A DNA stretch of 11,330 bases from a virus (taxonomy: Duplodnaviria > Heunggongvirae > Uroviricota > Caudoviricetes), in the IMG/VR virus record IMGVR_UViG_2548876932_000004; one strand, 5' to 3'. Each line of letters opens with the position of its first letter. Position 1 is the first letter of the stretch. The position numbers were made by a program, and so were the translations under genes. The notes under the pieces were generated by a model. It was not told the origin of the DNA. It did no database searches and saw nothing but the letters and a program-made list of their open reading frames with translations. This document shows positions 1 to 11,330 of this stretch, piece by piece.

Positions 1-54
1 CTGGCAGCCTGAGTTCACAGATAAAACACTCTCCAGGATTCCCGGGGCGGTTCA
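1..54 (+). mobile_element. Right terminus of an IS629-like (IS3 family) insertion sequence; element body lies upstream of the window
   Basis: Positions 29..54 read ...CTCTCCAGGATTCCCGGGGCGGTTCA, whose reverse complement TGAACCGCCCCGGGAATCCTGGAGAG matches the terminal inverted repeat I recall for IS629/IS1203 (TG...CA ends typical of IS3 family). Positions 1..12 (CTG GCA GCC TGA) fit the end of a transposase orfB (...L A A stop). Identification is from memory, not a search. Confidence 0.75.
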
Positions 55-258
55 GTCAGACGGGAGTTTGCCATCTGGGCAAAAGCGGTCGTGCAGGTGC
101 TGGAGACATTACCGGATATTCTGGAACGTGACTGCGGCCTGCAGCCTGCCGCTGTGAGCCGTGTTCAGTCCATTATTGATGATCTGCGCGATCAGATAGC
201 CCTGCGGGTGACCGAAGCAGGTGCGGATGATGAGGAGGAATTACAGCAGGAGGAGTAA
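55..258 (+). pseudogene. 3' fragment of terminase small subunit gene, 5' part removed by the IS insertion
   Basis: Open frame with no stops from 55 to TAA at 256..258 (67 codons, acidic C-terminus ...EAGADDEEELQQEE), with no start codon of its own after the IS boundary. Its stop overlaps the large terminase ATG (TAATG), the usual small/large terminase coupling arrangement. Confidence 0.6.
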
Positions 259-2360
259 TGCTGAATCAGGAAACCGCAAAGGCAGCACGAACCGATTCAG
301 GTTATATCCTTCGCGCACCGAGACGAATGCGGGTTGCTGATGCCGTTGCTCAGTATATGCGGGTGCCCATGGGGGCCGGGAACTCAGTCCCGTGGGATCC
401 GCTGGTGGCACCGTATGTTATTGAGCCGATGAACTGCCTGGCCTCGCGTGAATACGACGCAGTGATATTTGTTGGCCCGGCACGAACTGGCAAGACTATC
501 GGCCTGATTGACGGCTGGGTGATTTACAACGTGATTTGCGATCCTGCTGATATGCTGATCATTCAGATGACGGAGGAAAAAGCCCGCGAACACTCCAAAA
601 AACGACTTGCCAGAACGTTTCGCGTCAGCCCGGAAGTGGTCAGTCGCCTGAGTCCGAACAAAAATGACAACAACGTTTATGACAGAACATTCCTTGCTGG
701 CAACTACCTGAAAATCGGCTGGCCGTCAGTCAATATCATGTCCTCATCAGATTATAAATGCGTGGCGCTGACGGATTATGACCGTTTTCCGGAAGATATT
801 GATGGCGAGGGGGATGCCTTCTCTCTTGCCTCAAAACGTACCACCACATTTATGTCCAGTGGTATGACGCTGGTGGAGAGTTCCCCCGGCAGGGATGTGA
901 AGGATGTGAAATGGCGACGGACTTCACCGCATGAGGCTCCACCAACCACGGGGATACTGTCGCTCTATAACCGTGGCGATCGCCGTCGCTGGTACTGGCC
1001 CTGTCCACACTGTGGTGAGTATTTTCAGCCCTGCGGCGATGTGGTTGCTGGTTTCCGTGATATTGCCGATCCCGTGCTGGCAAGTGAGGCGGCTTATATT
1101 CAGTGTCCTTCCTGTTCAGGACGGATTATGCCTGAACAAAAACGTGAGCTGAACGGACGTGGGGTCTGGTTGCGGGATGGTGAATCCATCAATGCGGATG
1201 GCAGTCGTTATGGTGATCCCCGACGCTCACGTATTGCGTCATTCTGGATGGAGGGTCCGGCAGCTGCTTACCAGACACTCTCGCAACTCGTTTACAAACT
1301 GCTTGCTGCAGAACAGGAATACGAGACAACCGGAAGTGAAGAAACACTCAAGACGGTTATCAATACCGACTGGGGATTACCTTATCTTCCCCGTGCCAGC
1401 ATGGAGCAACGAAAAAGTGAACTGCTTGAGCAGCGGGCAGAGCCAGTTCCTTCCCGCAGTGTGCCGGATGGCGTTAATTTCCTGGTGGCGACAGTTGATG
1501 TGCAGGCGGGACGTCATCGCCGTTTTGTGGTTCAGGTAACGGGCTATGGCAGCCGTGGCGAACGCTGGATTATTGATCGTTACAACATCACGCAGTCATT
1601 GCGCGGTGACAGCGACGGGGAGAGCCAGCGAATTGATCCGGCCAGCTATCCGGAAGACTGGGATGTCCTGCTGACGGATGTTTTTCATAAAAGCTGGCCG
1701 CTGGCCTCCGATCCTTCTCAACAAATGCGACTGATGGCAATGGCGGTGGACTCCGGCGGTGAAGACGGAGTCACTGATAATGCCTATAAATTCTGGCGTC
1801 GTTGCCGTCGTGATGGCCTTGGTAAACGTATTTACCTGTTTAAGGGCGACAGCATCCGGCGCGCAAAACTGATCACCCGTACATTCCCTGATAACACCGG
1901 ACGAACGGGCCGACGGGCGCAGGCCGCAGGTGATGTACCGCTCTGGCTTCTTCAGACGGATGCCCTGAAAGACCGGGTGAATAACGCGTTATGGCGTGAC
2001 TCGCCAGGTCCCGGCTATGTGCATTTCCCTGACTGGCTGGGGAGCTGGTTTTACGACGAACTGACGTATGAAGAGCGGAGCAGTGACGGGAAATGGAGTA
2101 AGCCGGGTCGCGGTGCCAACGAAGCTTTTGACCTGATGGTGTATGCCGAGGCTCCGGTCATTCTGCATGGATACGAAAAGATCCGCTGGCCGGATGCACC
2201 GGAGTGGGCGAGCCGGGAAACCTGGCTGGAGTGTGTCCCGGACAGTACCGAACCGTCACCCACACCGGAACCGGTATCCACGCCTGTTAAAAAACAAAAA
2301 CGGAAGAAAACAGTAACTGACGATGTTAACCCCTGGCTGACTTCCGGAGGATGGTTATGA
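258..2360 (+). CDS. A: Terminase large subunit, lambda gpA family
   Basis: 700 aa ORF. Walker A P-loop VGPARTGKT near the N-terminus. CPHCGEYF...CPSC motif resembles the lambda gpA ACPHCGEE...CEHNAC region. FDLMVYAEA resembles gpA ALDCFVYALAA. Sits directly upstream of W-like and portal genes. Confidence 0.93.
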   Translation: MLNQETAKAARTDSGYILRAPRRMRVADAVAQYMRVPMGAGNSVPWDPLVAPYVIEPMNCLASREYDAVIFVGPARTGKTIGLIDGWVIYNVICDPADMLIIQMTEEKAREHSKKRLARTFRVSPEVVSRLSPNKNDNNVYDRTFLAGNYLKIGWPSVNIMSSSDYKCVALTDYDRFPEDIDGEGDAFSLASKRTTTFMSSGMTLVESSPGRDVKDVKWRRTSPHEAPPTTGILSLYNRGDRRRWYWPCPHCGEYFQPCGDVVAGFRDIADPVLASEAAYIQCPSCSGRIMPEQKRELNGRGVWLRDGESINADGSRYGDPRRSRIASFWMEGPAAAYQTLSQLVYKLLAAEQEYETTGSEETLKTVINTDWGLPYLPRASMEQRKSELLEQRAEPVPSRSVPDGVNFLVATVDVQAGRHRRFVVQVTGYGSRGERWIIDRYNITQSLRGDSDGESQRIDPASYPEDWDVLLTDVFHKSWPLASDPSQQMRLMAMAVDSGGEDGVTDNAYKFWRRCRRDGLGKRIYLFKGDSIRRAKLITRTFPDNTGRTGRRAQAAGDVPLWLLQTDALKDRVNNALWRDSPGPGYVHFPDWLGSWFYDELTYEERSSDGKWSKPGRGANEAFDLMVYAEAPVILHGYEKIRWPDAPEWASRETWLECVPDSTEPSPTPEPVSTPVKKQKRKKTVTDDVNPWLTSGGWL

Positions 2361-2569
2361 ACCAGAATGATATCGAAGCCATGATTCAGCGTTATACGGA
2401 AGCTGAAATGGCGGTGCTGGACGGAAAATCCGTCACCTTTAATGGTCAGCAGATGACCATGGAAAACTTATCTGAGATCCGGCAGGGACGGCAGGAGTGG
2501 GAGCGCCGCCTTGCGGCTCTGATTACACGACGACGGGGGCATCCCGGGTACCGGCTTGCGAGGTTCTGA
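2357..2569 (+). CDS. W: gpW-like head-tail joining / head completion protein
   Basis: About 70 aa. C-terminal ...RRRGHPGY resembles lambda gpW ...QRRRGPAGFYV. The ATG at 2357 has a GGAGG 6 nt upstream; the alternative ATG at 2351 has zero spacing. Overlaps the terminase stop (ATGA) and the portal start (TGATG at 2567..2571). Confidence 0.7.
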   Translation: MNQNDIEAMIQRYTEAEMAVLDGKSVTFNGQQMTMENLSEIRQGRQEWERRLAALITRRRGHPGYRLARF

Positions 2570-4077
2570 TGGCAATTCTTGATGATGTGATTGGCGTTTT
2601 TTCACCAGGATGGAAAGCGGCAAGGCTGCGTTCCCGTGCGGTGATCCAGGCTTATGAGGCCGTAAAAACGACGCGGACACACAAAGCCCGGCGGGAAAAC
2701 CGAACTGCCGACCAGTTAAGCCAGTACGGGGCCGTGTCGTTACGTGAGCAGGCCCGTTACCTTGATAACAACCACGATCTGGTCATTGGTGTATTTGACA
2801 AGCTGGAAGAACGGGTGGTGGGGAAAAACGGGATTATTGTCGAGCCACATCCGGTATTACGCAATGGGGCCATTGCCCGTGATCTGGCAGCGGAGATACG
2901 CACCCGATGGAGTGAATGGTCTGTCAGTCCGGAAGTCACCGGGCAGTTTACCCGTCCGATGCTGGAACGTCTGATGTTGCGTACCTGGCTGCGCGATGGT
3001 GAGGTGTTTGCCCAGATGGTTTCCGGGCGCATAAACAGCCTGACGCCTTCTGCCGGTGTTCATTTCTGGCTGGAGGCGCTCGAGCCGGACTTTATTCCCA
3101 TGACCAGTGATGAGAGCAACAGGCTGAATCAGGGCGTGTTTGTTGATGACTGGGGGCGTCCCGAAAAATATCTGGTGTATAAAAGCCGTCCCGTATCCGG
3201 ACGGCAGATGGAAACCAAAGAAGTGGATGCAGAGCGAATGCTGCATCTTAAATTTGTTCGCCGTCTGCACCAGATGCGCGGGACGTCTTTGTTGTCCGGT
3301 GTGCTGATCCGCCTCAGTGCCCTGAAAGAGTATGAAGATTCTGAGCTGACTGCAGCAAGGATCGCCGCTGCTCTGGGGATGTACATCCGGAAAGGCGACG
3401 GGCAGAGCTATGAACCGGATGGTAATGGCAGCAAGGATAAGGAACGCGAGCTTACCATTCAGCCAGGCATTATTTACGACGATCTGAAACCCGGCGAAGA
3501 AATCGGAATGGTGAAGTCGGATCGCCCCAATCCTAATCTTGAAACTTTTCGTAATGGTCAGTTGCGTGCCGTGGCGGCGGGCAGTCGTCTGAGTTTTTCC
3601 AGTACAGCGCGCAACTATAACGGCACTTACAGCGCCCAGCGTCAGGAGCTGGTTGAATCCACTGATGGCTACCTGATCCTGCAGGACTGGTTTATTGGTG
3701 CCGTCACCCGCCCGATGTATCGTGCCTGGCTGAAACAGGCTGTGGCATCCGGTGTTATCAGGCTACCCCGCGATCTTGATCGTTCTTCACTGTATACCGC
3801 GGTGTATTCCGGACCGGTGATGCCGTGGATTGACCCTGTTAAGGAGGCTGAGGCCTGGAAAATTCAGATTCGTGGTGGAGCGGCGACAGAATCAGACTGG
3901 GTACGTGCAGGTGGTCGTAATCCGGATGATGTCAAACGTCGGCGCAAGGCCGAAATTGATGAAAACCGCAAGCTGGATCTGGTATTTGATACCGATCCGG
4001 CCAGTGATAAAGGAGGCAGCAGTGCCGCAACGAAACGACAGGAGCCGCAGCACACCGACGACCAGTCCGAAGAATAA
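2569..4077 (+). CDS. Portal protein
   Basis: About 502 aa from the ATG at 2569 (MAILDDVIGVF...), overlapping the W-like stop. Size and position between terminase/W and the head protease are canonical. The track ORF begins at a GTG at 2497 inside the W-like gene, which I consider a less likely start. Confidence 0.88.
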   Translation: MAILDDVIGVFSPGWKAARLRSRAVIQAYEAVKTTRTHKARRENRTADQLSQYGAVSLREQARYLDNNHDLVIGVFDKLEERVVGKNGIIVEPHPVLRNGAIARDLAAEIRTRWSEWSVSPEVTGQFTRPMLERLMLRTWLRDGEVFAQMVSGRINSLTPSAGVHFWLEALEPDFIPMTSDESNRLNQGVFVDDWGRPEKYLVYKSRPVSGRQMETKEVDAERMLHLKFVRRLHQMRGTSLLSGVLIRLSALKEYEDSELTAARIAAALGMYIRKGDGQSYEPDGNGSKDKERELTIQPGIIYDDLKPGEEIGMVKSDRPNPNLETFRNGQLRAVAAGSRLSFSSTARNYNGTYSAQRQELVESTDGYLILQDWFIGAVTRPMYRAWLKQAVASGVIRLPRDLDRSSLYTAVYSGPVMPWIDPVKEAEAWKIQIRGGAATESDWVRAGGRNPDDVKRRRKAEIDENRKLDLVFDTDPASDKGGSSAATKRQEPQHTDDQSEE

Positions 4078-4090
4078 TTCCTGGTTCAGG

Positions 4091-6049
4091 ATGCAGGCAG
4101 GTCACCAGAGTGACGCGGATATTTATATTTATGACGAGATTGGTTTCTGGGGTGTTACGGCGAAGCAGTTTATCAGTGATCTGAATGCACTGGGCGATAT
4201 CACCCACATTAATCTCCATATTAATTCACCGGGTGGCGATGTCTTTGAAGGCATCGCCATTTTTAATGCACTGAAAACACATGGTGCGTCCATTACCGTT
4301 TATGTCGACGGTGTGGCGGCGTCAATGGCGTCGGTCATTGCGATGGTGGGAAACCCGGTCATTATGCCGGAAAACTCCTTCATGATGATTCATAAACCAT
4401 TTGGCTTTACGGGCGGTGATGCGGAGGACATGCGCACCTATGCCGACCTGCTCGATAAAGTTGAGGCGGTTCTGTTACCCGCTTATGCACAGAAAACCGG
4501 GAAAACCACCGATGAAATTGCTGCCATGCTGGCGGATGAGACCTGGATGTCCGGTGCCGAATGTCTGGCACAGGGATTTGCTGATCAGGTGACACCAGCC
4601 GTTAAGGCAATGGCATGTATTCAGTCAAAACGTACAGAGGAATTTAAAAAGATGCCGGAATCCATTCGAAATATGATTACTCCGCCACGCAACAGTGCTC
4701 CACGCGTACAGGATGATGGACCTGCAGCCTCCCGGACGCCAGTGCAGGCAGCAGCACCCGTGGTGGATGAAAACAGCATCCGTGCGCAGGTCCTGGCAGA
4801 GCAAAAAGCGCGTGTAAACGGTATTAATGATCTGTTTGCCATGTTTGGTGGGCGTTATCAGTCGCTGCAGGCTCAGTGTCTTGCCGATCCTGAATGTTCG
4901 CTGGAGCAGGCCCGCGAAAAGCTGTTGAACGAGATGGGGCGCGAGTCCACGCCATCCAATAAAAATACCCCGGCTCATATTTATGCCGGTAACGGTAATT
5001 TTGTGGGGGACGGGATCCGCCAGGCGCTGATGGCGCGCGCCGGGTTTGAAAAAACCGAACGTGATAATGTCTACAACGGGATGACCCTGCGTGAATATGC
5101 CCGTATGTCACTGACTGAACGTGGTATTGGTGTTTCCAGTTATAACCCGATGCAGATGGTCGGTGCGGCGTTCACACACAGTACGTCTGACTTCGGTAAT
5201 ATTCTGCTGGATGTTGCGAACAAAGCCATTCTGCAGGGCTGGGAAGATGCCCCTGAAACCTATGAACAGTGGACGCGGAAAGGTCAGTTGTCTGATTTTA
5301 AAATTGCCCATCGTGTGGGTATGGGGGGCTTCAGTGCTCTGCGTCAGGTGCGTGAAGGGGCAGAATATAAATACGTCACCACCGGAGATAAACAGGCCAC
5401 TATTGCACTGGCGACCTATGGCGAGCTGTTCAGTATCACCCGTCAGGCCATTATCAATGATGATCTGAATATGCTGACCGATGTCCCGATGAAGCTGGGC
5501 CGTGCGGCGAAATCCACTATTGCCGATCTGGTTTATGCCATTCTGACGTCTAACCCGAAAATCTCCACAGATAATGTAAGTCTGTTCGATAAAGCGAAAC
5601 ATGCAAACGTACTGGAGAGCGCGGCAATGGACGTGGCATCGCTGGATAAAGCCCGCCAGTTGATGCGCGTTCAGAAAGAGGGTGAGCGTCATCTGAATAT
5701 TCGTCCTGCGTTCGTACTGGTACCGACGGCGATGGAGTCTGTTGCTAACCAGGTCATTCGCTCCTCAAGTGTCAAGGGGGCTGACATTAACGCCGGTATT
5801 ATTAACCCGGTGAAAGATTTTGCGACCGTTATTGCAGAGCCTCGTCTTGATGATAACAGCCAGACCACCTTCTACCTGGCTGCGTCCAAAGGCTCCGATA
5901 CGATTGAAGTGGCTTATCTCAACGGTGTGGATACGCCATATATTGATCAGATGGAGGGCTTCAGTGTGGATGGCGTGACAACGAAAGTACGTATTGACGC
6001 TGGTGTTGCGCCAGTTGATCACCGCGGCCTAGTGAAATGTACGGCGTAA
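4091..6049 (+). CDS. Head maturation protease (ClpP-like, S14) - scaffold-like linker - major capsid protein (HK97 fold) encoded as one continuous ORF
   Basis: 652 codons with no internal stop. The N-terminal ~190 aa has a ClpP-like layout (IYIYDEIG..., INSPGGDVFEGIAIFNAL, candidate catalytic Ser in GVAASMASV, His in MMIHKP). The middle ~120 aa is Pro/Ala-rich then helical (ENSIRAQVLAEQKARVNGINDLF...). The C-terminal ~340 aa has the length and character of an HK97-type major capsid protein. Start is placed at ATG 4091, 13 nt after the portal stop; the track ORF start at 3830 is a TTG whose upstream extension overlaps the portal and looks non-protein-like. Confidence 0.88.
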   Translation: MQAGHQSDADIYIYDEIGFWGVTAKQFISDLNALGDITHINLHINSPGGDVFEGIAIFNALKTHGASITVYVDGVAASMASVIAMVGNPVIMPENSFMMIHKPFGFTGGDAEDMRTYADLLDKVEAVLLPAYAQKTGKTTDEIAAMLADETWMSGAECLAQGFADQVTPAVKAMACIQSKRTEEFKKMPESIRNMITPPRNSAPRVQDDGPAASRTPVQAAAPVVDENSIRAQVLAEQKARVNGINDLFAMFGGRYQSLQAQCLADPECSLEQAREKLLNEMGRESTPSNKNTPAHIYAGNGNFVGDGIRQALMARAGFEKTERDNVYNGMTLREYARMSLTERGIGVSSYNPMQMVGAAFTHSTSDFGNILLDVANKAILQGWEDAPETYEQWTRKGQLSDFKIAHRVGMGGFSALRQVREGAEYKYVTTGDKQATIALATYGELFSITRQAIINDDLNMLTDVPMKLGRAAKSTIADLVYAILTSNPKISTDNVSLFDKAKHANVLESAAMDVASLDKARQLMRVQKEGERHLNIRPAFVLVPTAMESVANQVIRSSSVKGADINAGIINPVKDFATVIAEPRLDDNSQTTFYLAASKGSDTIEVAYLNGVDTPYIDQMEGFSVDGVTTKVRIDAGVAPVDHRGLVKCTA

Positions 6050-6072
6050 ACGTCGCAGACAACAACTCTGAT

Positions 6073-6092
6073 GGCCCGTAAGGGCTTTTTTT
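6073..6092 (+). terminator. Putative rho-independent terminator after the capsid gene
   Basis: GCCC-GTAA-GGGC (short GC stem with a GNRA-type tetraloop) at 6074..6085, followed by 7 T at 6086..6092, 24 nt after the capsid stop codon. Confidence 0.55.
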
Positions 6093-6135
6093 GTACCTGA
6101 AATCAGCCCCTGAACGGGGCTGTGCGGAGACAGTT

Positions 6136-6459
6136 ATGGCAAAGAATTTTGTAGAAGAAGGAAAAACGGTGGCGATTGTTGCCAGTGCAGCCATCAGCAG
6201 CGGAGATCTGGTGCAGGTGGGTGATGTTTTTGCGGTGGCGCTGACCGATATTCCACAGGGAGAAACAGGCGACGGCATAACCGAAGGTGTGTTTATGCTG
6301 CCTAAGCTGAAAACGGATGACATGAAAACGGGTAAGAAGGTTTATATGAAGTCAGGAAAAGTTCAGCTGACTAACAGCGGCTCTGATCCGCTGGTCGGGG
6401 TTGTCTGGGCAGATGCCGGAACCAGTGCAGAAGAAGTGCCGGTAAAACTCAATGTCTGA
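6136..6459 (+). CDS. Small conserved phage head-region protein of unknown function (possibly DUF2190-like)
   Basis: 107 aa from ATG 6136 with GGAGA 5 nt upstream (the track ORF starts at an upstream TTG). Gly/Val-rich, beta-like composition. Sits immediately after the capsid gene. No similarity to lambda gpD or gpFI that I can see. Confidence 0.7.
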   Translation: MAKNFVEEGKTVAIVASAAISSGDLVQVGDVFAVALTDIPQGETGDGITEGVFMLPKLKTDDMKTGKKVYMKSGKVQLTNSGSDPLVGVVWADAGTSAEEVPVKLNV

Positions 6460-6727
6460 TCCCTTTTCCCGGCTGGCAGCGCGTATGGATGCGATCACGG
6501 TCAGAAAGATGGGAAAGACAGCCTCGATTAATGATGTCGATATGACTGTGATCCCGGGAGAAACACTGGCAGAGCTGAATGCTCTGTCCGGACCTGCGGT
6601 CTCTCTGGTGGTGTTTTCTTCGGGATACCGCCCACGGCGCGGGGATCGCGTTGTTTATGACGGACAACAATGGACGGTCACACGGCATGAACGCTTTAAC
6701 GGTAAGCCAATGATCTTTATTGAGTAA
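6452..6727 (+). CDS. Head-tail joining / head completion protein, gpFII-like
   Basis: 91 aa. Overlaps the upstream gene by 8 nt. The motif pattern ...RKMGKTASI...SLVVF...RRGD...W.V.R resembles lambda gpFII (...RGYMGTSATI...SLFV...RRGD...FWVDR). Confidence 0.7.
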   Translation: MSDPFSRLAARMDAITVRKMGKTASINDVDMTVIPGETLAELNALSGPAVSLVVFSSGYRPRRGDRVVYDGQQWTVTRHERFNGKPMIFIE

Positions 6728-6738
6728 AGAGGTGTGGG

Positions 6739-7317
6739 ATGAAGGGGCTTGAGAATGCCATCCGCAATCTGAACAGCCTTGATACCCGTATGGTGCCACA
6801 GGCCAGCGCATGGGCGATAAACCGTGTGGCACAGAAAGCGGTCTCGGTTGCCACCCGGCAGGTTGCCGGGAATACCGTTGCGGGAGATAACCAGGTGAAA
6901 GGGATCCCCCTGAAACTGGTACGTCAGCGTGTCCGGGTGTTTAAAGCCAGTCCGTCAGGAAAAATGACGGCCAGGATCCGCGTTAACCGAGGCAATCTGC
7001 CCGCCATTAAGCTGGGGACAGCCCGGGTCAGACTGGCCCGGCGTGGTGGAAAACTGCAGTACCGTGGCAGTGTGCTGAAGGTGGGTAAATATCTTTTCCG
7101 GGATGCGTTTATTCAGCAACTGGCGAATGGTCGCTGGCATGTGATGCGACGTATTGATGGCAAAAATCGTTACCCCATTGATGTGGTGAAAATCCCGCTG
7201 TCCGGACCGCTGACACAGGCATTTGAAGATGCCCGCGACCACATCATTGCTGCGGAAATGCCGAAACAGCTGGGGTATGCACTGAAACAACAACTGAGGT
7301 TATGGCTGACCCGATGA
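6739..7317 (+). CDS. Tail completion protein, lambda gpZ-like (by position and size)
   Basis: 192 aa, the same length as lambda gpZ. Good RBS AAAGAGG 6 nt upstream of the ATG. Located directly before the U homolog. Confidence 0.75.
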   Translation: MKGLENAIRNLNSLDTRMVPQASAWAINRVAQKAVSVATRQVAGNTVAGDNQVKGIPLKLVRQRVRVFKASPSGKMTARIRVNRGNLPAIKLGTARVRLARRGGKLQYRGSVLKVGKYLFRDAFIQQLANGRWHVMRRIDGKNRYPIDVVKIPLSGPLTQAFEDARDHIIAAEMPKQLGYALKQQLRLWLTR

Positions 7318-7715
7318 ACCGACATACACAAATCCGCCAGGCCGTACTGGCACGCCTTCGGGAACAGTGTGGAGACAGCGCCACGTTTTTTGACGGGCTT
7401 CCGGCATTTATTGATGCGCAGGAACTGCCTGCCGTGGCGGTGTGGCTGAGTGATGCTCAGTACACCGGAAAAATGACGGATGAAGATGACTGGCAGGCTG
7501 TTCTGCATATTGCCGTCTTCATCCGGGCACAGGCACCGGATTCAGAGCTGGATATGTGGATGGAGAGCACCATTTTCCCTGCCCTGAATGATGTACCGGC
7601 ACTTTCCGGACTCATCGACATCCTGATCCCACTCGGTTTTAACTATCAACGTGATAATGAGATGGCCACCTGGGCGATGGCGGAAATCACGTACCAGATC
7701 ACGTACACGAATTAA
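7314..7715 (+). CDS. U: Tail terminator protein, lambda gpU homolog
   Basis: Clear similarity to lambda gpU as I recall it: ATFFDG.PA..D....PAVAV.L....YTG...D.D.WQA.LHI.VF..AQ.PDSELD.WMES.I.P...D.PALS.LI; the C-terminal ITYQITY matches gpU LTYVITY. The ATG at 7314 overlaps the Z-like stop (ATGA); the alternative ATG at 7302 would add 4 aa. Confidence 0.9.
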   Translation: MNRHTQIRQAVLARLREQCGDSATFFDGLPAFIDAQELPAVAVWLSDAQYTGKMTDEDDWQAVLHIAVFIRAQAPDSELDMWMESTIFPALNDVPALSGLIDILIPLGFNYQRDNEMATWAMAEITYQITYTN

Positions 7716-7725
7716 GGAGGTGGTA

Positions 7726-8469
7726 ATGACCACACCAAATCCACTGGCAAAGACGAAAGGTGCGGGGACGACGTTCTGGATGTATACCGGCAACGGCGAT
7801 GCGTTTGCGAACCCTTTGTCGGACACTGACTGGCTGCGTCTTGCGATGGTGAAGGATCTGCAACCTGGCGAAATGACCGCTGATGCAGAAGATGACACTT
7901 ATCTCGATGATGAAGATGCAGACTGGAAAACGACAACCCAGGGGCAGAAATCCGTCGGTGATACTTCGGCGACGCTGGCCTGGCGTCCGGGTGACAGCGG
8001 GCAGAAAAAACTGGTTCAGTTGTTCGACTCCGGTGAAGTCTGCGCGTTTCGTATCAAATATCCCAACGGTACTGTTGATGTTTTCCGTGGCTGGCTGAGT
8101 TCACTGGGTAAAACCATTGCCTCAAAAGACGTGATGACCCGCACAGTGAAAATCAGCGGTGTGGGGCGTCCGTATCTGGCAGAAGAAGGCACTGAAACCG
8201 TGGGCGTTACCGGGCTGACGGTGGCACCGGCATCTGCCAGTGTAAAAGTGGGAGCAACCACCACGCTGACCTTTACAGTAAAACCTGACGGAGCCAGTGA
8301 CAAAGCGATCAGTGTGCATTCGACAGATCCACAGACTGCCACGGTGACCCTGAACGGGCTTGTGGCCACGGTGAAAGGCGTGAAGCAGGGCAGTGTCAGC
8401 ATTGTGGGCATGACTTCTGACGGCGATTTTGTGGCAGTGGCTACGGTGGCTGTCAGCGCCGCAGGTTAA
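7726..8469 (+). CDS. V: Major tail (tube) protein, lambda gpV homolog with C-terminal Ig-like (Big_2-type) domain
   Basis: 247 aa. Strong similarity to lambda gpV throughout (KGAGTT.W.Y.G.GD..ANPLSD.DW.RLA.VKDL.PGE.TA...DD.YLDDEDADW..T.QGQKS.GDTS.TLAW.PG..., PNGTVDVFRGW.SS.GK). The C-terminal ~90 aa (GLTVAPASASVKVG.TTTLTFTV.PDGASDK...) has bacterial Ig-like character. AAGGAGG RBS at 7714..7720. The track ORF start at 7651 is an upstream in-frame extension overlapping U and is rejected. Confidence 0.95.
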   Translation: MTTPNPLAKTKGAGTTFWMYTGNGDAFANPLSDTDWLRLAMVKDLQPGEMTADAEDDTYLDDEDADWKTTTQGQKSVGDTSATLAWRPGDSGQKKLVQLFDSGEVCAFRIKYPNGTVDVFRGWLSSLGKTIASKDVMTRTVKISGVGRPYLAEEGTETVGVTGLTVAPASASVKVGATTTLTFTVKPDGASDKAISVHSTDPQTATVTLNGLVATVKGVKQGSVSIVGMTSDGDFVAVATVAVSAAG

Positions 8470-8489
8470 CAGGACGATACTCATCATTT

Positions 8490-8513
8490 GCCCCGATTAT
8501 CCGGGGCTTTTTT
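8490..8513 (+). terminator. Putative rho-independent terminator between V and G
   Basis: GCCCCG (8490..8495), loop ATTATC, CGGGGC (8502..8507), followed by TTTTTT (8508..8513), 21 nt after the V stop codon. Confidence 0.6.
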
Positions 8514-8526
8514 GCAGGTGGAGAAC

Positions 8527-8916
8527 ATGATGTTTCTGAAACAGGGCACGTTTAATTATGAAAAGCAGTCCGTGGTGCTCAGTGAGCTGTCCGGGCTGCA
8601 GAGAATTGAATATCTGGCGTTTGTTCAGCAGCGAACGGCAAAGTTTGATGCCGAAGAGGGAGAACTGCCGGAGGCTGAACGACAGATTGCTTTTCTGCGG
8701 ATGGGGATGGATATCAATGCCTGGCTGGTTTCCCGCTCACTGTGGAATGCGGATCAGTCTAAGGATGTAGAGACGCTTTGCGCATCCGTTATTACAACAT
8801 GGTCGTATGATGCCCTGGGTGCGGGGGCGGAGATGGTTCTGTCGCTGAGCGGTATGGGGACCATTGATAATGCCGGGGATGATGAGCATGAGGCGCTGAC
8901 GCCGGAAAAGTCCTGA
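8527..8916 (+). CDS. G: Tail assembly chaperone, lambda gpG homolog
   Basis: About 129 aa. (M)MFLKQGTFNYEKQSVVLSELSGLQRIEYLAF... aligns with lambda gpG MFLKTESFEHNGVTVTLSELSALQRIEHLAL... Start is ATG 8527 or 8530, with GGAG at 8520..8523. The track start at 8488 is a TTG inside the terminator. Confidence 0.9.
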   Translation: MMFLKQGTFNYEKQSVVLSELSGLQRIEYLAFVQQRTAKFDAEEGELPEAERQIAFLRMGMDINAWLVSRSLWNADQSKDVETLCASVITTWSYDALGAGAEMVLSLSGMGTIDNAGDDEHEALTPEKS

Positions 8917-9254
8917 CGCGGGAAATGCAGTTTGTCATGCGGCTTGCCCGGGAGTTCCGACGGGCAGACTGGCGGCGGATGCTGTCGGAAATGTCGGCCA
9001 CTGAGCTTGGTGAGTGGGGCGATTATTTCCGGATGCAGAGCTTCAGTGATGTGTGGATGGATGCGCAGTTTGCCTCGCTGAAGGCATTGATCGTGAGAAT
9101 GGTGTCCGGTAGCAGTGATGCTGCGGTGGCTGATTTCAGCCTTTTACCGGAAGAGAACGGGATACCGGAGCGAACGGACGAAGAACTGATGCATCTTGGG
9201 GAAGGTATTTCCGGAGGTGTGCGTTATGGACCAGATAGCCAACCTGGTCATTGA
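8527..9254 (+). CDS. T: Tail assembly chaperone G-T fusion product (gpGT-like), made by -1 frameshift near 8904..8910
   Basis: The downstream ORF (frame 0, open 8892..9254) has no RBS or start of its own positioned for independent translation and lies in the -1 frame relative to G. This is the conserved arrangement in lambda-like tail gene clusters, immediately upstream of the tape measure gene. Product about 242 aa. Confidence 0.7.
8904..8910 (+). promoter_or_regulatory. Candidate -1 programmed ribosomal frameshift slippery site (G GAA AAG) for G-T fusion
   Basis: The T frame is -1 relative to G and is open only from 8892. G stops at 8914..8916. The only A-rich slippery candidate in this 25 nt overlap is GGAAAAG at 8904..8910. 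Confidence 0.6.
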
Positions 9255-11277
9255 TTTGGGGATTGATGCGGCAGAGTTTAAAAATGAAATTCCCCGTATC
9301 AAAAACCTTCTGAATGGTGCAGCCAGCGATGCAGAACGGTCTTCTGCCCGTATGCAGCGTTTTATGGAGCGTCAGACTCAGGCCGCCCGGCAGACAATGC
9401 AGGCGGCTTCTTCGGCTGCAACTGCCGCATCCGTCCATGCGCAGACGGTGGAGAAGAGCGCACAGGCTCATGAACGCATGGCCCGCGAGGTGGAGCAAAC
9501 CCGCCAGCGTATGGAGGCACTGAGCCAGAAAATGCGCGAGGAACAGGCGCAGGCCATGGCTCTGGCGGAGGCTCAGGATAAAGCGGCTGCCGCGTTTTAT
9601 CGTCAGATTGACAGTGTGAAACAGGCCAGTGCGGGGCTGCAGGAATTACAGCGTATTCAGCAGCAGATCCGACAGGCTAGAAACAGTGGCGGGATTGGTC
9701 AGCAGGATTATCTGGCGCTGATTTCTGAGGTTACGGCGAAAACCCGTGTTCTTACGCAGGCTGAGGCAGAGGCTACCCGACAGAAAGTGGCGTTTATCCG
9801 TCAGCTTAAAGAGCAGGCAACCCGCCAGAATCTTTCTTCTTCTGAGTTGCTTCGTGCTAAGGCTGCCCAGCTGGGGGTAAGCAGTGCTGCAGAAGTGTAT
9901 ATCCGCAAAATGGAGCAGGCAGGAAAAGCCACGCATTCGCTGGGTCTGAAAAGTGCAGCGGCCCGCCAGGAGATAGGCGTTCTGATAGGTGAACTGGTTC
10001 GCGGCAATTTAGGTGCGCTGAGGGGATCCGGGATAACGCTGGCTAACCGTGCCGGATGGATAGACACACTGATGTCACCGAAAGGCATGATGCTGGGCGG
10101 GGTTATTGGCGGTATTGCCGCGGCCGTCTATGGTCTGGGTAAAGCCTGGTATGATGGTCAGAAGGAGGGGGAAGAATTTAACCGCCAGTTGTCGCTGACG
10201 GGGCATTATGCCGGAGTCACTGCCGGGCAGCTGTGGACGCTCAGTCGTGCTATTTCCGGGAATGGTATCACGCAACATGCTGCAGCCGGTGCGCTGGCTC
10301 AGGTGGTGGGGAGTGGCGCATTTCGTGGAAACGATATCGGTATGGTGGCGAGAGCTGCCGCACAGATGGAGCGATCGGTTGGCCAGTCGGTCAGCGATAC
10401 CATAAGTCAGTTTAAGCGGCTGAAGGATGATCCTGTAAATGCCGCGAAGGCTCTGGACAATGAGCTGCATTTTCTTACTGCCACTCAGCTTGAGCAGATA
10501 CGTGTCCTTGGGGATCAGGGACGGTCCAGTGATGCTGCACGGATAGCCATGTCTGCACTGGCAGAGGAAACCGGTCGGCGTACTGCGGATATTGATAATA
10601 ACCTCAATGCGCTTGGCAGTACGCTGAAGTATCTGTCTGATTTGTGGAGTCGTTTCTGGGATGCGGCCATGAATATTGGTCGTGAAGACTCGCTGGATGA
10701 ACAGATTGCCGCTTTACAGGAGAAAGTGTCGCGGGCGAAAAGACTCCCCTGGACGGCATCATCTTCTCAGGTTGAATACGATCAGCAGCGTCTTAACGAT
10801 CTTCAGGAGAAAAAACGCCAGAAGGATTTGCAGGATGCAAAAGAGCAGGCAGAGCGGAATTATCAGGAGCAACAGAAACGACGTAATGCTGAAAATGCTG
10901 CACTGAACCGGATGAATGAATCGGAAGCAGCACGACATCAGCGTGAAATTGCGCGTATTAATTCCATGCAGTACGCCGATCAGGCTGTCAGGGATGCAGC
11001 GATACAACGTGAAAATGAACGTTACGAGAAAGCCCTGGCATCCGGTAAGAAAAAAACACGCGAAACCCGTAATGATGAGGCCACCCGGTTATTGCTGCAG
11101 TACAGTCAGCAACAGGCACAGGTGGAAGGACAGATTGCTGCTGCAAGACAGTCAGCAGGCATTGCCACTGAAAAGATGACAGAAGCGCATAAACAGCTTC
11201 TGGCTCTGCAGCAGCGCATCAGCGATCTGGACGGGAAAAAACTGACGACAGATGAAAAGAGTGTGCTGGCCCGTTGA
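9226..11277 (+). pseudogene. H: Tail tape measure protein, lambda gpH homolog, 3'-truncated by an insertion at 11275
   Basis: N-terminus MDQIANLVIDLGIDAAEFK resembles lambda gpH MAEPVGDLVVDLSLDAARF. The central region (...LSLTGHYAGVTAGQLWTLSRA...WSRFWDAAMNIGREDSLDEQI...) aligns with the gpH region (...LVLSGNQAGLTADRMLVLSRA...FKSMWDAVLDIGRPDTAQEM...). GGAGG RBS 8 nt before ATG 9226. The frame stops at TGA 11275..11277 after 683 aa, where the lambda homolog would continue about 350 aa further. The stop codon coincides with the first bases of an IS-like terminus. Confidence 0.85.
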
Positions 11278-11330
11278 GGTAGCCTGAGTTTAACGGACAC
11301 TCCTTCCTGAAATAGAATGGCATCAGAAGG
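11275..11330 (+). mobile_element. Probable left terminus of an IS3-family insertion sequence (possibly IS600-like), continuing beyond the window
   Basis: Abrupt loss of the gpH reading frame at a sequence starting TGAGGTAGCCTGAGTTTAACGGACAC... (TG start typical of IS3-family IRs). About 50 nt of leader ends in AGAAGG at the window edge, consistent with an RBS for a transposase orfA just downstream. The IS600 assignment is a tentative recollection and is not verified. Confidence 0.5.

Follow-up and report, generated by a model that had tools for sequence, protein, structure and literature searches.

The right edge of the window, i.e., the whole 11,330-nt stretch of viral DNA analysed here, which is the entire draft contig AIAI01000089.1 of the assembly GCA_000446195.2, lies within an insertion sequence (IS) that interrupts the tail tape-measure gene of a prophage. 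The reading to which we give a probability of about 0.9 is that a single IS600 (1264 bp) transposed into the tape-measure gene of a lambdoid prophage at codon 683/684, in an O145:H28-type Escherichia coli, and duplicated the trinucleotide CGT in doing so. The features of the window on which the argument bears are the following:

1 to 54, plus strand: right end (last 54 nt) of an IS629-like element, with an identical junction in O145 genomes where the transposase is annotated
55 to 258, plus strand: 3' remnant of a DUF1441 gene, 67 codons and a stop (Pfam DUF1441, profile positions 94-146 of 147)
9226 to 11277, plus strand: 5' two-thirds of the tail tape-measure gene, 683 of 1021 codons (Pfam TMP_2 and TMP_4; identity to the RM9872 gene)
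11272 to 11274, plus strand: target site CGT, tape-measure codon 683 (Arg), repeated at positions 55-57 of AIAI01000105.1
11275 to 11330, plus strand: first 56 nt of IS600, 100% identical to the copies at L008 1701-1756 and L009 1701-1756
11275 to 11301, plus strand: left inverted repeat, 27 nt, imperfect, within the IS600 left end
11325 to 11330, plus strand: AGAAGG, the first 6 nt of the orfA ribosome-binding site

The interrupted gene comes after those for a Phage_TAC_2 and a Phage_tail_T protein and is of the lambda type, with TMP_2 and TMP_4 recognised in 9226-11274 and the domain Tape_meas_lam_C on the separated 3' fragment. Its start codon is the ATG at 9226, the start given in the list of open reading frames being a TTG at 9196. 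Up to codon 683, its identity to the counterpart in E. coli O145 strain RM9872 (WP_000372002.1, 1021 codons) is 100%, after which the intact RM9872 gene continues AAAGATGAACTG and the window continues TGAGGTAGCC (in a longer form, TGAGGTAGCCTGAG...). When positions 10330-11330 were compared by megablast with 5426 complete E. coli genomes, genes annotated as 'phage tail tape measure protein' were matched at 100% identity and every top alignment to an intact gene stopped exactly at window position 11274. As identity is lost after this position and the sequence onward is foreign, the gene is broken after codon 683. The initial annotation, which called the gene gpH, had placed the end of its frame exactly where a sequence TGAGG... 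begins, and this holds to the nucleotide: the similarity stops at 11274 and the frame closes on the TGA of 11275-11277, which are at the same time the first three bases of IS600. The truncated product thus counts 683 aa, without IS-encoded extension, and is separated from the C-terminal 338 aa that include the Tape_meas_lam_C domain; an exact look-up of this product leads to contig AIAI01000089.1. The same allele was also encountered in the Logan assembly SRR32768194 (L012 7928-10993), where it is 99.9% identical and carries a nonsense change, CAG to TAG, at codon 657, which is a second and independent route to the decay of the tape-measure gene.

IS600 belongs to the IS3 family, was first described in Shigella sonnei and is common in Shigella, EIEC and EHEC. 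Two copies in complete genomes, namely those of E. coli MBT-5 (L008), where the element splits a prophage portal gene, and of strain 2013C-4538 (L009), where it adjoins nleC, served as references. Both are 1264 bp long with TG...CA tips, imperfect inverted repeats of 27 nt (70% complementary) and 3-bp target duplications, ACC and AGA respectively. In these copies, the ATG of orfA stands at IS position 65, preceded by AGAAGGAG, and a slippery motif A-AAA-AAG (A7G) is present at IS position 316; the products match HTH_Tnp_1 (OrfA) and HTH_21 together with rve (OrfB) in Pfam, and orfA/orfB of L008 bear the PGAP note 'programmed frameshift'. Three other copies were unusable as references, i.e., that of the plasmid pWR501, broken by IS629 after 590 bp, that of an ETEC plasmid, which is only a fragment, and that of FDAARGOS_944, which is truncated.

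Window positions 11275-11330 are identical, over all 56 nt, to the left end of this 1264-bp element, where they form the outermost 56 nt upstream of the coding sequence annotated in intact copies as 'IS3-like element IS600 family transposase, programmed frameshift'. The same 56-mer occurs at 99% identity or more in 3353 E. coli records (E = 3e-20) and in 381 Escherichia/Shigella plasmid records (E = 7e-21), with 100% identity among the matches listed in either search; chance cannot explain an exact match over 56 nt. An IS3-family left end interrupting the tape-measure gene had indeed been proposed from the letters of the window, and the element can now be named as IS600. The TG terminus then described is there, at 11275-11276, and the AGAAGG likened to a ribosome-binding site at the window edge turns out to be the first 6 nt of AGAAGGAG, which occupies IS positions 51-58. 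Only the leader, estimated at about 50 nt, was set too short; given the position of the orfA ATG in an intact copy, it measures 64 nt, and this ATG is expected 9 nt past the end of the window.

The left end is shared by a close variant of the element on the Shigella virulence plasmid pWR501 (NC_002698.1, L001 1601-2190), labelled ISSfl11 by PGAP, of which the first 56 nt are identical and the first 590 nt carry 39 mismatches. As the left end is the same in both, it does not allow the variant to be assigned; the element in the window is probably IS600 rather than the pWR501 variant, as the 54-nt match of the right end to IS600 (described below) and the host background suggest. The pWR501 variant is interrupted by a copy of IS629 after position 590, which makes for nested IS elements.

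The 56-mer is widespread, since 3169 of the 5426 E. coli genomes contain it, the median being a single copy per genome. The K-12 derivative NZ_CP014348.1 (L015 1501-1870) has it once, inside the pseudogene of a truncated transposase, with an ISEc52-family remnant on one side and IS30 on the other. A single truncated remnant with the 56-mer is thus found in over half of E. coli genomes, K-12 included, and because such remnants are widespread, the 56-mer alone is no proof of a full element. It could accordingly be asked whether the window ends in a solo left-end fragment of this kind, and several plasmid copies are truncated or interrupted too. Against this stand the right end of the element, found with a target duplication in the same assembly, and the breaking of three independent assemblies at one point, which a unique remnant would not cause; a solo fragment is extremely unlikely. 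A full, multicopy IS is the best reading, as drawn from the reciprocal junction and from the assembly breaks.

The reciprocal junction was approached through its protein products. The expected right junction was modelled as the right end of IS600, CGT and the tape-measure gene from codon 684 onward, and ten possible gene-caller products of this arrangement were looked up by exact sequence in a protein collection. Two of the ten exist, one of 330 aa (from Met692) and one of 357 aa, the latter composed of WLLKKRTNGSVRYCQYTS (18 aa from the IS600 right end), R, and then KDELIQ... (residues 684-1021), as would be predicted for a contig beginning some 54-56 nt within the IS. Its coding sequence opens contig AIAI01000105.1 (L014), which belongs, like the window, to assembly GCA_000446195.2. 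The first bases of this contig are the final 54 nt of IS600, without any difference from L008, and CGT and the tape-measure gene from codon 684 come next; the remaining 1017 nt of the gene are 100% identical to RM9872, and further downstream come genes for Phage_min_tail, Phage_tail_L, an NlpC/P60 peptidase and Lambda_tail_I, then the start of gpJ. In a homology search with the tape-measure C-terminus, the expected fragment was absent among the matches listed, which are cluster representatives only.

As such, the 56 nt at 11275-11330 of the window and the 54 nt at 1-54 of AIAI01000105.1 are both 100% identical to one reference copy of IS600 (L008), and the terminal dinucleotides TG...CA are distributed over the two contigs, TG in the window and CA at positions 53-54 of AIAI01000105.1. 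The 3-bp target-site duplication is CGT, present at 11272-11274 of the window and at 55-57 of the partner contig. The initial annotation had advised looking for the 3' part of gpH and for a target-site duplication beyond the element, and AIAI01000105.1 supplies the two of them. With CGT duplicated and the gene continuous on both flanks, the event corresponds to a simple transposition of IS600 in which no target DNA was lost. Both IS ends, the duplication and an uninterrupted gene sequence on either flank are seen directly. To judge by its ends, the element at this site would be full and intact, 1264 bp long and with its transposase, the IS body lying outside both contigs; likewise, the duplication and the continuity of the gene suggest that the two junction contigs are adjacent in the genome.

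Two further observations concern this partner contig. The database entry UniRef100_UPI0003EF2661, named 'phage tail tape measure protein' (357 aa; L014 1-1074), owes its first 18 residues to the non-coding right end of IS600, so that its N-terminus is a contig-edge annotation artefact. Moreover, the gene for minor tail protein L is frameshifted in RM9872 (L011 20327-21026) and forms an intact open reading frame of 232 codons in AIAI01000105.1 (L014 1413-2111); this indel between RM9872 and the assembly of the window, some 1.84 kb downstream of where IS600 inserted, may be a real difference or a sequencing error.

It is conceivable that IS600 transposed normally and that the two junctions are no longer next to one another, following recombination between IS600 copies with inversion or translocation, or that the insert is larger, i.e., two direct copies of IS600 flanking other DNA. 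The two contigs reach 56 and 54 nt into the IS and none spans it, EHEC genomes carry many copies of IS600 and IS629, and the neighbouring IS629 element already sits at a rearrangement junction devoid of target duplication. The matching CGT and the perfectly continuous gene nonetheless form the pattern of a single undisturbed insertion, and no positive sign of rearrangement was seen, which makes such a separation or enlargement unlikely.

The position of the junction at a contig end calls for some comment. The window ends lie 54 nt (left) and 56 nt (right) inside IS copies, and short-read assemblers break at repeats; IS600 being multicopy, the short-read assembly broke there, which accounts for only 56 nt of it being in the window. 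The overhangs look like assembler k-mer overlaps, and IS termini at the window edges are therefore expected rather than special. Contig ends are also where misjoins and repeat overhangs accumulate, and the 56-nt tail might as such be an assembly chimera in a genome with no IS at this site. The same truncated gene and left junction were however recovered from two other sequencing runs, ERR10936281 and SRR21142927, assembled independently in Logan, with 30 and 24 nt of the IS, respectively, before the contig ends; taken with the existence of the reciprocal junction and its duplicated CGT, this makes a chimera extremely unlikely. No record covering both sides of the junction was found by megablast among the 5426 complete E. 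coli genomes, which thus offer no closed reference for it, and an exact search of genome contigs for the 43-nt tape-measure/IS600 junction gave no match in a collection that probably holds too few E. coli.

Concerning the host, positions 1-11274 show 0 mismatches to positions 5325697-5336970 of the chromosome of E. coli O145 RM9872, from which it follows that the source is an E. coli of O145:H28-type EHEC background or a very close relative. RM9872 shares the IS629-like junction at position 54 but its tape-measure gene is intact. The suggestion that the pattern is typical of IS-rich Shigella or EHEC genomes agrees with this background, the host being EHEC-like on the strength of those 11,274 bp. 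In O145:H28, IS600 has been reported as the second most abundant IS, after IS629 (PMC3893438).

How the element would have reached this site can be outlined by analogy with its family. Elements of the IS3 family, e.g., IS911, IS2, IS3 and IS150, transpose by a copy-out-paste-in pathway via a circular form that brings their two ends together. By extension, the OrfAB transposase of IS600 would be made by a -1 frameshift at A-AAA-AAG and would join one end of the element to the other to yield a circle, in which the abutted ends would create a strong junction promoter; the circle would then integrate by a 3-bp staggered cut. Junction promoters have been described for IS911 and IS2. With the IS600 ends abutted through a 3-bp spacer, a candidate junction promoter can be read, consisting of a -35 box TTGCCA from the right end, an 18-bp spacer and TAGCCT from the left end. 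As for the consequences on the gene, no stop codon interrupts the tape-measure frame over the last 50 codons of IS600, where a TTG in the same frame stands 46 codons ahead of the junction. Transcription from within or across the IS could in principle yield a hybrid of 385 aa carrying Tape_meas_lam_C and, together with the 683-aa fragment, a split tape-measure protein; this outcome, read from the frames, is highly unlikely. If true, such a split protein might still allow tails to assemble to some degree, or might serve another purpose.

At the left edge, the window begins with the last 54 nt of a different element, already recognised as an IS629-like end at position 54 and now identified, from the identical junction of RM9872, as the right end of an element of 1310 bp. 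In RM9872, this element extends over L011 6442-7751 with termini TGAACCGCCCCGGG, and its coding sequence, 'IS3 family transposase, programmed frameshift', is on the plus strand, upstream of the part present in the window. The name IS629 is taken from its termini and from PMC3893438, the PGAP label being only 'IS3 family'. The element cuts off the DUF1441 gene, which adjoins the gene for the large terminase and bears in RM9872 the annotation 'DUF1441 family protein, missing N-terminus'.

The RM9872 copy of the IS629-like element has no target-site duplication, its flanks reading TAA and GTC, and what adjoins it on the other side is a DUF551 gene of opposite strand instead of the N-terminal part of the DUF1441 gene. 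The prophage of RM9872 comprises an integrase next to yjjG and a few small genes, then the IS629-like element and the truncated DUF1441 gene, and no regulatory, replication or lysis genes were found there between the integrase and the packaging genes. The missing duplication, the DUF551 neighbour and the proximity of the integrase to the packaging genes indicate together that the IS629-like element marks a large deletion or rearrangement by which the early and lysis region was removed. With these genes lost at the IS629 junction, the prophage was already defective before the arrival of IS600, whose insertion is most likely a neutral further decay.

Within the window, the remaining prophage genes offer two side observations. 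The genes for the tail chaperones, G (Phage_TAC_2) and T (Phage_tail_T), occupy positions 8530-9254 in a lambda-like arrangement; G ends in ...CCGGAAAAGTCCTGA (8902-8916), a slippery sequence at which a -1 frameshift might produce a G-T fusion and which fits the canonical lambda heptamer G-GGA-AAG inexactly. Positions 4022-6049 form a single open reading frame of 675 codons with ClpP-like prohead protease and major capsid domains, of which the start overlaps the end of the portal gene and for which the RM9872 annotation reads 'ClpP-like prohead protease/major capsid protein fusion protein'.

The initial annotation had further seen the head-tail module as bracketed by two IS3-family elements with their transposases on the plus strand, in a configuration that could allow IS-mediated deletion or mobilisation of the 11-kb segment. 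Family and orientation are as it said for both elements, the bracketing itself partly reflecting where the assembly broke. A composite transposon consists of two copies of one IS flanking a segment, as in Tn10 or Tn5, and the window resembles this organisation in that an 11-kb segment lies between two IS3-family elements of the same orientation. It differs in that the boundaries carry neither the same IS nor compatible ends, IS629-like (TGAACCGCC...) on the left and IS600 (TGAGGTAGCC...) on the right being different elements with unrelated termini, and in that no duplication flanks the pair; the composite reading was rejected accordingly. With unrelated termini, one transposase is not expected to act on both outer ends, and the part of the proposal that concerns mobilisation is thus not to be retained. 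The part that concerns deletion is more fortunate, as IS-associated deletion is generally plausible here and the IS629-like element already marks one.

Compared with known cases, nothing in the present element is demonstrably unlike IS600, the comparison extending over the ends only: there is no difference in the 56 nt of the left end or the 54 nt of the right, the tips are TG...CA, the repeats are of 27 nt and the duplication is of 3 bp; what sets this copy apart is its site, absent from the 5426 complete E. coli genomes. As in MBT-5, the target is a prophage gene, the portal gene there and the tape-measure gene here. In STEC O121:H19, IS600 interrupts lacZ at a 3-nt IS600 target sequence, in a lineage-specific manner and reversibly via the IS-excision enhancer (PMC9397093). 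The two cases have in common the element, a target duplication of 3 nt and the interruption of a gene in an EHEC background (PMC9397093); unlike lacZ, the gene hit here belongs to a prophage that was defective already, so that neither a phenotype nor selection for excision is expected.

In practical terms, the target duplication can serve to join contig 89 to contig 105 of GCA_000446195.2, and the case explains why draft contigs of such genomes start or end in IS termini. Present in at least three assemblies and in none of the complete genomes searched, the insertion marks a particular strain or sublineage of the O145:H28-type background. Its biological weight is small, insertions of IS600 and IS629 into cryptic prophages being routine in EHEC and Shigella: a known insertion sequence shows here its known behaviour, and the interruption of the tape-measure gene is ordinary genome decay.
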